In this document: in pieces, positions 1,833 to 2,885 of the stretch
Numbering within the stretch: the first letter of the stretch is position 1
Layout of the letters: each line of letters begins with the position of its first letter
Source of the DNA: Escherichia coli
GTDB lineage: Bacteria; Pseudomonadota; Gammaproteobacteria; Enterobacterales; Enterobacteriaceae
Assembly (NCBI RefSeq): GCF_044647545.1
Contig: NZ_CP172818.1
DNA length: 64,000 nucleotides
Strand: one strand, 5' to 3'
Notes under the pieces: model-generated
The model's input: the letters and a program-made list of their open reading frames with translations, nothing else
What the model was told of the DNA's origin: nothing
Database searches by the model: none
Made by a program: the position numbers and the translations under genes

Positions 1833-2885
1833 GTGAACATATATATCGGGTGGCTTTTCAAATTAATCCCTTTAATTATGGGCTTAATTTGTATCGCGTT
1901 AGGTGGCTTTGTGCTGGAAAGTTCTGGGCAAAGTGAGTATTTCGTCGCGGGTCATGTGCTGATTTCTCTGGCAGCCATATGCCTGGCATTATTCACTACC
2001 GCATTTATTATCATTTCGCAGCTCACGCGCGGCGTTAATACGTTTTACAATACATTGTTCCCCATTATTGGCTATGCGGGGTCAATTATCACCATGATAT
2101 GGGGTTGGGCACTGTTAGCAGGCAATGATGTGATGGCAGACGAGTTTGTTGCCGGCCATGTTATTTTTGGCGTTGGTATGATTGCCGCCTGTGTATCGAC
2201 AGTGGCAGCGTCATCCGGTCACTTTCTGCTCATTCCCAAAAACGCAGCAGGGAGCAAGAGCGATGGAACACCGGTACAGGCTTATTCGTCATTAATCGGT
2301 AATTGCCTCATTGCCGTTCCCGTTTTACTCACCCTGCTCGGTTTCATTTGGTCTATTACGCTGTTACGTAGTGCCGACATAACTCCGCATTATGTCGCCG
2401 GTCACGTATTGCTTGGGTTAACCGCAATCTGTGCCTGTCTAATTGGCCTTGTTGCCACAATCGTCCATCAAACACGTAATACGTTCTCATCCAAAGAACA
2501 CTGGCTGTGGTGTTATTGGGTTATTATTCTCGGCTCAATCACGGTGCTGCAGGGCATATACGTGTTAGTCAGCTCCGATGCAAGCGTCCGACTGGCTCCC
2601 GGCATTATTCTCATTTGCCTCGGAATGATCTGTTACAGCATATTCTCAAAAGTCTGGCTACTGGCACTGGTCTGGAGACGTACCTGTTCGTTAGCCAACA
2701 GAATACCGATGATTCCCGTCTTCACCTGCCTGTTTTGCCTTTTCCTGGCATCGTTTCTTGCGGAAATGGCGCAGACCGACATAGGGTATTTTATTCCTTC
2801 GCGGGTTCTGGTCGGTTTGGGAGCGGTATGCTTTACGTTGTTCTCAATCGTTTCAATATTAGAAGCGGGTTCTGCTAAAAAATAA
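1833..2885 (+). CDS. yhiM: inner membrane protein YhiM (DUF2776), acid-resistance associated
   Basis: ORF 1734..2885; likely GTG start at 1833 with GAGGAG RBS 7 nt upstream gives 350 aa; multi-pass hydrophobic protein with repeated (Y/F)VAGHV motifs. Confidence 0.8.
   Translation: MNIYIGWLFKLIPLIMGLICIALGGFVLESSGQSEYFVAGHVLISLAAICLALFTTAFIIISQLTRGVNTFYNTLFPIIGYAGSIITMIWGWALLAGNDVMADEFVAGHVIFGVGMIAACVSTVAASSGHFLLIPKNAAGSKSDGTPVQAYSSLIGNCLIAVPVLLTLLGFIWSITLLRSADITPHYVAGHVLLGLTAICACLIGLVATIVHQTRNTFSSKEHWLWCYWVIILGSITVLQGIYVLVSSDASVRLAPGIILICLGMICYSIFSKVWLLALVWRRTCSLANRIPMIPVFTCLFCLFLASFLAEMAQTDIGYFIPSRVLVGLGAVCFTLFSIVSILEAGSAKK

Follow-up and report, generated by a model that had tools for sequence, protein, structure and literature searches.

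Five tandem transmembrane hairpins and a predicted histidine/arginine layer in the Escherichia coli inner-membrane protein YhiM

What kind of membrane protein is YhiM, and what does a histidine motif that occurs in it three times stand for? YhiM, a protein of the inner membrane, has phenotypes but no mechanism: it has been connected with acid survival, export of gamma-aminobutyric acid (GABA), growth at high temperature and low osmolarity, copper sensitivity, activation of Cpx, and fitness in a mouse model of urinary tract infection. Its gene is contained in the stretch of Escherichia coli DNA analysed here, 64,000 nucleotides of contig NZ_CP172818.1 (assembly GCF_044647545.1), hereafter called the window. 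The yhiM coding sequence occupies positions 1833..2885 on the plus strand, starts with GTG and specifies 350 residues plus a stop; residues are numbered from the GTG at 1833. The product has ten transmembrane (TM) helices, and its membership in the DUF2776 family is certain from its sequence: the GTG-start protein matches PF10951 with 525.6 bits (E = 8.3e-158; gathering score 26.1 bits), residues 1-347 aligning with profile positions 1-347 of 348. The first-pass annotation had read the recurrence of (Y/F)VAGHV, each time followed by a hydrophobic helix, as the sign of an internally triplicated membrane module with conserved and possibly functional His residues.

The three strings on which that reading was based are all present in the plus-strand yhiM open reading frame (ORF), and each opens an even-numbered helix: EYFVAGHVLISLAAICLALF (1935-1994) opens TM2, DEFVAGHVIFGVGMIAACV (2139-2195) opens TM4 and PHYVAGHVLLGLTAICACLIG (2385-2447) opens TM6, the last extending 17 nt past position 2430, where the repeat had been said to end. 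To follow the motif through the family we used an alignment of 65 diverse full-length homologues that are 24-62% identical to YhiM (A1). The first copy, FVAGHV, covers residues 37-42 (1941..1958), with H41 (codon CAT, 1953-1955) present in 72% and G40 in 93% of the aligned sequences. The second, also FVAGHV, covers residues 105-110 (2145..2162), with H109 (CAT, 2157-2159) present in 90% and G108 in 96%; the third, YVAGHV, covers residues 187-192 (2391..2408), with H191 (CAC, 2403-2405) present in 81% and G190 in 96%. The proposal that the His residues are conserved across DUF2776 was therefore well founded. The codons differ among the three copies (TTCGTCGCGGGTCATGTG, TTTGTTGCCGGCCATGTT, TATGTCGCCGGTCACGTA), and a repeat at the DNA level was sought in yhiM without any being found. 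This indicates that the duplication is ancient and that the motif has been kept by selection at the protein level.

Transmembrane proteins are skewed in composition, and the recurrence might reflect a coincidence among hydrophobic helices instead of a true repeat. In 20,000 composition-preserving shuffles of YhiM, an exact 4-mer appeared three times in 344 cases, which would fit such a coincidence. By contrast, an exact 5-mer appeared three times, as VAGHV does, in only 7 (p ~ 3.5e-4), and the register of the motif is maintained across the DUF2776 family. A more sensitive view was obtained by comparing the family profile with itself in hhalign, with A1 given as both query and template and the -alt option in use. 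Besides the trivial diagonal, this produced four families of in-register alignments only. A shift of one hairpin aligned residues 2-277 with 69-343 (E = 5.4e-23, score 169), a shift of two aligned 3-210 with 153-343 (E = 1e-22, score 167), a shift of three aligned 12-118 with 229-333 (E = 4.6e-9, score 72), and a shift of four aligned 11-60 with 293-343 at 34% identity (E = 9.7e-8, score 62). The next alignment was noise (E = 0.99). Four families of shifts are the signature of five tandem units of about 66 residues. When the column order of the profile was flipped, which retains composition and hydrophobic periodicity, the best score was 29 (E = 0.005), compared with 62-169 for the true off-diagonals.

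The same conclusion was reached with single hairpins and single helices. All 10 pairs of hairpins are related by hhalign, with E-values from 7e-17 to 6e-5; among the first three hairpins the range is 2e-10 to 7e-17, and among TM2, TM4 and TM6 taken as isolated helices it is 1e-8 to 6e-15. Comparisons of even helices with even helices gave a mean score of 34.3 (range 21.7-55.3), full length and in register, while odd helices compared with odd helices gave weaker and mostly in-register alignments (mean 15.8). Odd helices compared with even helices, which serve as a negative control of the same composition, gave a mean of 8.2 and a maximum of 12.3, with E >= 0.006. The helix-class scores indicate that the repeat unit comprises the entire hairpin, in which an odd helix is joined by a short turn to an even helix that begins with the motif. 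Chance compositional recurrence of hydrophobic helices is ruled out by the reversed-profile, hairpin-pair and single-helix comparisons taken together, and we regard its probability as practically negligible. The protein sequence thus shows that the whole of the 350-residue YhiM consists of five tandem hairpin copies of about 66 residues, and that the hairpin duplication is ancient, preceding the divergence of the DUF2776 family. The internal repeat proposed in the first-pass annotation is therefore real and significant, while its multiplicity has to be revised: a two-helix hairpin is repeated five times and takes in all ten TM helices. What had been noticed were the copies that keep the His, the fourth and fifth being homologous but His-less.

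The five units, all on the plus strand, were delimited by hhalign. Hairpin 1 (TM1, a short acidic periplasmic turn, TM2) comprises residues 2-66 (1836..2030) and aligns with hairpins 2, 3, 4 and 5 at E = 2.3e-10, 7.2e-17, 1.5e-10 and 2.9e-12, respectively. Hairpin 2 (TM3, turn, TM4) comprises residues 68-134 (2034..2234) and aligns with hairpin 3 at E = 1.4e-13, with hairpin 4 at 5.7e-11 and with hairpin 5 at 6e-5, the weakest of all pairs. It is followed by a longer cytoplasmic linker, PKNAAGSKSDGTPVQ (residues 135-149, 2235..2279), that lies outside the repeat; the linker appears as a gap in the off-diagonal alignments, and DSSP assigns a non-helical stretch at residues 140-152 of a structural model described below. 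Hairpin 3 (TM5, turn, TM6) comprises residues 150-217 (2280..2483; E = 9.8e-10 with hairpin 4 and 5.9e-10 with hairpin 5). Hairpin 4 (TM7, turn, TM8; residues 218-284, 2484..2684) is degenerate and has no His; it aligns with hairpin 5 at E = 4.9e-7, and TM8 by itself aligns with TM2, TM4, TM6 and TM10 at E = 6e-6 to 2e-8. Its copy of the motif, LAPGII (residues 254-259, 2592..2609), was aligned to VAGHV by both MAFFT and hhalign; it reads RLAPGII in E. coli, and R[IL]APG[C/I/Y/F]V in the family consensus. Hairpin 5 (TM9, turn, TM10; residues 285-350, 2685..2882) is also degenerate and carries Arg at the His position: its motif copy FIPSRV (residues 320-325, 2790..2807), within YFIPSRV in E. 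coli and F[IV]P[AS]RV in the family consensus, places R324 there. In a MAFFT alignment of the repeat units, the five E. coli copies align without internal gaps.

How would five such hairpins be arranged in the membrane? The cytoplasmic side, made up of the loops after even helices and both termini, carries about 10 Lys and Arg residues and 3 Asp and Glu residues, while the odd-even turns carry 2 and 9, respectively. From this positive-inside census, YhiM has both termini in the cytoplasm, and its motifs lie where TM2, TM4 and TM6 begin on the periplasmic side. The predicted topology in the literature is also N-in/C-in with 10 TM helices (PMC6604978). In each hairpin, the odd helix runs from the inside to the outside, an acidic periplasmic turn of 2-6 residues follows, and the even helix runs back. 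An AlphaFold2 model built from A1 (predicted local distance difference test, pLDDT, 95.6; predicted template modelling score, pTM, 0.94) has ten long helices and periplasmic turns of 2-6 residues; in it, the five hairpins together form a closed ring of helices in two layers.

The assignment of helices to the two layers relies on family variation. The mean column entropy is 1.31 bits in even helices and 1.82 bits in odd helices; the fraction of small residues is 0.40-0.55 and 0.25-0.35, respectively; and the helical variability moment is 0.08-0.31 for even helices and 0.13-0.48 for odd ones (0.37-0.48 for TM1, 3, 5 and 7). Even helices are thus conserved almost all round. Four of the five odd ones vary on one face, and they carry the Trp residues. 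Most likely, the even helices are the five central helices, and the more variable, Trp-rich odd helices form an outer ring that faces the lipid. The odd helices also share a conserved Pro near their cytoplasmic third (P13, P77, P163 and P295). On each even helix, a stripe of small and hydroxylated residues runs at offsets 0, +4, +7, +11, +14 and +18, headed by the His position. For TM2, TM4, TM6, TM8 and TM10 in turn, the residues are H, H, H, C and R at offset 0; S, G, G, G and G at +4; A, L, A, M and A at +7; A, C, S, S and T at +11; and T, T, A, S and S at +14. The hydrophobic and volume moments are directed 132-166 degrees away from the His face, the hydrophobic moment by itself 137-166 degrees.

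This geometry suggests how the motif may act. H41, H109, H191, residue 258 and R324 would lie together in a single layer where the central helix bundle opens to the periplasm. Should the stripe point towards the axis, this mouth would lead into a conduit with walls of Gly, Ala, Ser and Thr, and L116 and M265 would be a possible hydrophobic constriction. A titratable, cationic layer of three His and one Arg (His3/Arg) might then gate or select passage along the central small-residue conduit, and it might respond to acidification of the periplasm or bind copper. A layer of this kind would account for the GABA-export phenotype of yhiM at acid pH and for its copper-accumulation phenotype. At pH 5, GABA export is reduced in the yhiM mutant, and between pH 2.5 and 5.5 it is increased by overexpression; the gene is monocistronic and under the control of GadE, GadX and RpoS (PMC6604978). 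In uropathogenic E. coli (UPEC), a yhiM deletion lowers cellular copper, confers copper resistance and activates Cpx, and yhiM responds to CueR and CpxR (PMC11005409). We place the probability of the explanation as a whole, a five-hairpin ring with a His3/Arg periplasmic mouth, at roughly 0.55; within it, the role of the His3/Arg ring as a pH- or metal-sensitive mouth of a pore is what we infer from the features above.

The conservation of the layer bears directly on this proposal. All three His and a basic residue at position 324 are found together in 39 of the 65 sequences of A1, and every one of these sequences has at least one His near the periplasmic turns. At position 324, Arg is present in 86% of A1 and His in a few homologues. 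The equivalent position in hairpin 4, residue 258, is I in E. coli and C, I or an aromatic residue in the family. All five repeats share a Gly at +4 and, directly preceding the His position, a small residue (G, G, G, G and A/S). The family consensus also has a second His five residues upstream (HxxxxH), at positions corresponding to residues 36, 104 and 186 of YhiM (1938-1940, 2142-2144 and 2388-2390). In a related set of 66 sequences filtered at 80% identity, this upstream His occurs at position 36 in 52% and at position 186 in 41%. Most homologues have four or five His around the three periplasmic turns; of the upstream ones, E. coli retains H186 alone.

The same columns can be read as purely structural. 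The A-G preceding the His and the Gly at +4 would permit a tight start of the even helix against its hairpin partner and its neighbour, and the His, Arg or aromatic residue would be an interfacial cap or a snorkelling residue with no part in transport, sensing or metal binding; the repeat would merely record how the fold arose. The best-conserved element is indeed the small residues and not the His, with G at 90-96% in four repeats at -1 (A/S in the fifth) and at +4; moreover, repeats 4 and 5 have no His, and P, L, S, N or R replace H41 or H191 in divergent homologues. Against this, His is rare at the starts of membrane helices, and still 72-90% of sequences keep it at three positions, down to 24-30% identity; a second His is often added five residues upstream; and the fifth repeat is positively charged in 86% of sequences. 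The pattern seems to reflect selection on chemistry as well as on size. A purely structural motif is a real possibility, but on balance an improbable one.

Could the layer instead be a copper site? In this reading, the three His, with the nearby His at -5 and Cys residues, would form a periplasm-facing site in a protein for copper uptake or sensing, the repeat serving to place three imidazoles round one axis. Three conserved His on homologous helices at equal membrane depth are the geometry expected of a tri-His site, and the low copper and copper resistance of the UPEC deletion, together with the regulation by CueR and CpxR, point in the same direction. So do seven highly conserved Cys, all of them intramembrane: C20, C50, C120, C200, C267, C302 and C333, of which C200 is invariant in the 65 sequences. 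Each even helix has one near-invariant Cys, at +9 in four cases (C50, C200, C267 and C333) and at +11 in the fifth (C120). The +9 Cys point away from the His stripe, on the opposite, hydrophobic face, which probably packs against the outer helices; C120 is the only even-helix Cys on the stripe itself. A pore-lining ring of thiols formed by the +9 Cys was considered and is unlikely, since the +9 face is about 180 degrees from the His stripe. The position of these Cys likewise speaks against a copper site, as does the conserved Arg in the same layer, which would disfavour cation binding. Moreover, the family is common among alpha-proteobacteria and actinobacteria of the soil, where its neighbourhood holds no metal genes, K-12 has no copper phenotype, and the effect in UPEC was partly ascribed to an N-terminal MXXXM motif (PMC11005409) that comes from a start-codon allele absent from the window. 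We consider a dedicated copper site quite unlikely.

The UPEC MXXXM motif appears to be MGFKM, made up of an upstream ATG and the normal start Met in an allele that is 90% identical (P0002, 354 residues), so that the motif depends on which start codon is the true one. In the window, positions 1821-1835 read EEFK followed by GTG, and the motif is absent. The longest ORF at yhiM begins with an ATG at 1734, 33 codons upstream of the GTG, and would give 383 residues, its extension reading MHLSLMISRHYINRLKLSLMHISILAGIPEEFK before VNIY... (1734-1832). Public gene calls give YhiM as 350, 354, 361 or 364 residues (P0001, P0002, P0004). Mapping experiments in K-12 placed the start codon at the GTG and the beginning of the transcript 22 nt upstream of it (PMC6604978), and this transcription start excludes the long forms.

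The most specific version of the His3/Arg proposal is that YhiM, and DUF2776 with it, is a single-chain pseudo-pentameric channel in which the ring serves as an acid-titratable gate or filter, or as an entry site for copper. Such a channel would be either independent of the SLAC1/TehA anion channels or an inside-out relative of them, with even helices lining the axis. If this were true, one molecular explanation would cover both the acid-pH GABA-export and the copper phenotypes. We put it forward as a speculative suggestion, itself rather doubtful. Several points weigh against the broader proposal of a ring with a His3/Arg mouth. The inner ring, the His residues facing the axis and the existence of a pore are inferred from conservation and periodicity, and a helix face of small residues can equally reflect tight helix packing with no lumen. 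The His position is substitutable, as the replacements at H41 and H191 illustrate, and repeats 4 and 5 fold in its absence; the fold can therefore do without the His, and function may do without it as well. The yhiM phenotypes range from GABA and copper to temperature and osmolarity, a diversity that could arise indirectly from envelope stress. Nothing in the PDB was matched by Foldseek at E <= 1e-3, TehA reaching a TM-score of only 0.41-0.45. Finally, a conserved gene partner that might hint at a substrate was sought near six homologues (from Hansschlegelia, Microbacterium, Crenobacter, Nonomuraea, Bordetella avium and one metagenome contig) and none was seen; the gene stands alone. Mean-field direct coupling analysis of 132 full-length homologues (effective number of sequences, Meff, 55) returned as its top pairs alignment and gap artefacts within TM5 and TM6 and was of no use for telling which helices are in contact.

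The family itself is uniform in size. Clustered at 50% identity, DUF2776 falls into about 256 groups, which come from proteobacteria, actinobacteria and metagenomes; its full-length members all have about 345-355 residues. Among longer homologues (386-495 residues), no informative fused domains were found. One metagenomic protein of 396 residues (P0190) joins the first ~3.5 hairpins to a LytR_cpsA_psr domain, possibly as the result of a frameshift or an assembly artefact. On a Crenobacter caeni contig (L007, 1-7491), the DUF2776 gene is divergent from a urease cluster (ureABC, ureE, ureF) with two crcB fluoride-channel genes, and the locus continues with a small ORF and a gene of the formate/nitrite-transporter family. 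This neighbourhood of acid, ammonia and anion-channel genes was seen in that genome only.

In the window, the yhiM DNA is 100% identical to an E. coli chromosomal copy annotated as yhiM, and the gene is flanked by pitA and by the convergent yhiN, which encodes an HI0933-like flavoprotein. Between yhiM and yhiN, at 2902-2937, a perfect 12-bp inverted repeat (AAAACCAGCGTT ... AACGCTGGTTTT) with a 12-nt loop is probably a bidirectional terminator; its loop length explains why a simple terminator scan overlooked it. When 5,426 complete E. coli genomes were searched by megablast with window positions 1700-2900 as the query, yhiM was found in 4,250, among them 4,181 in which coverage was >= 80%; the gene is therefore not strictly core. 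One genome, NZ_CP121151.1, retains just the final 72 bp of this query. A paper on transposition of Tn7/pco/sil into the host chromosome (PMC8417528) reportedly names yhiM five times.

In the literature searched we did not find the sequence repeat or the His/Arg ring, nor, in the part of it concerned with YhiM, any His mutant of the protein. The repeat, the motif and the conservation of the motif are unmentioned in the two papers devoted to YhiM (PMC6604978, PMC11005409) and in PMC11288890; Pfam describes DUF2776 as a single 348-column domain of unknown function, with neither fivefold structure nor a His/Arg layer. Since a barrel-like model of YhiM had already appeared in PMC11288890, the present finding refines a known protein. 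The view of five hairpins makes DUF2776 a symmetric family with few equivalent positions (three His, one Arg, a stripe of Gly, Ala, Ser and Thr, and five Cys in equivalent register), and systematic mutation of these could tell whether the protein acts as a channel, senses pH or binds metal.

A comparison can be made within the window itself. The acid fitness island is located about 26-28 kb downstream of yhiM (29020-31332), with yhiD, an MgtC-family gene on the minus strand (29020-29679), and hdeD (30760-31332), which encodes an acid-resistance inner-membrane protein in which two DUF308 (PF03729) hairpin repeats were detected. HdeD resembles YhiM in being a membrane protein of repeated two-TM hairpins that belongs to the GadE/RpoS acid-stress regulon, encoded some 28 kb away. 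It differs in having three hairpins instead of five and in the absence of the VAGH motif. A link between YhiM and HdeD/DUF308 was tried and gave no signal: PF03729 matched none of the five YhiM hairpins at E <= 10, and the best hhalign alignment of A1 with HdeD, a weak single-sequence target, had E = 0.1. The acid regulon is thus represented in this one window by two membrane proteins with hairpin repeats that are unrelated to each other.

Among channels, the closest architectural parallel is TehA/SLAC1 (TDT, PF03595). Like these proteins, YhiM has ten TM helices in one chain, a cytoplasmic N-terminus, and five hairpins round a quasi-five-fold axis, which in YhiM is predicted. In SLAC1/TehA, however, the pore is lined by the five odd helices, with the even helices outside (PMC10645844), whereas in YhiM the even helices appear, from the conservation pattern, to be the buried ring. 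This opposite inner and outer order may partly explain the low TM-score. Further traits of the SLAC1/TehA family are a conserved pore-gating Phe on TM9 and assembly as a trimer. PF03595 is not among the YhiM Pfam matches at E <= 1, and when every PDB sequence was searched with a hidden Markov model of the YhiM family, nothing came below E = 0.06 and neither TehA nor SLAC1 appeared. The best hhalign alignment of A1 with a TehA alignment had E = 0.27, which is a weak test as the latter was shallow (120 homologues, all at least 81% identical; Neff 1.26). At that alignment depth, TehA has no sequence-detectable internal repeat, while that of YhiM is obvious. The resemblance is therefore architectural and not close, and membership in TDT is unsupported by sequence.

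The other parallel comes from protein design. The designed barrels sc-CC-6/7/8 and the toroids cTRP9 and DHR81 share with YhiM a parallel inner ring buttressed by an outer ring and built from helix-turn-helix repeats. They are soluble designs with 6-9 repeats and are evolutionarily unrelated to YhiM, a natural membrane protein with five. When the designers of the sc-CC barrels searched for natural look-alikes with Foldseek, they found the AFDB model of YhiM (P37630) and remarked on its 'five central helices' in 2024 (PMC11288890). In YhiM, a quasi-five-fold hairpin architecture like that of SLAC1/TehA and of designed barrels can still be read from the sequence, a rare case in nature and a helpful one for work on the evolution of these folds through duplication.

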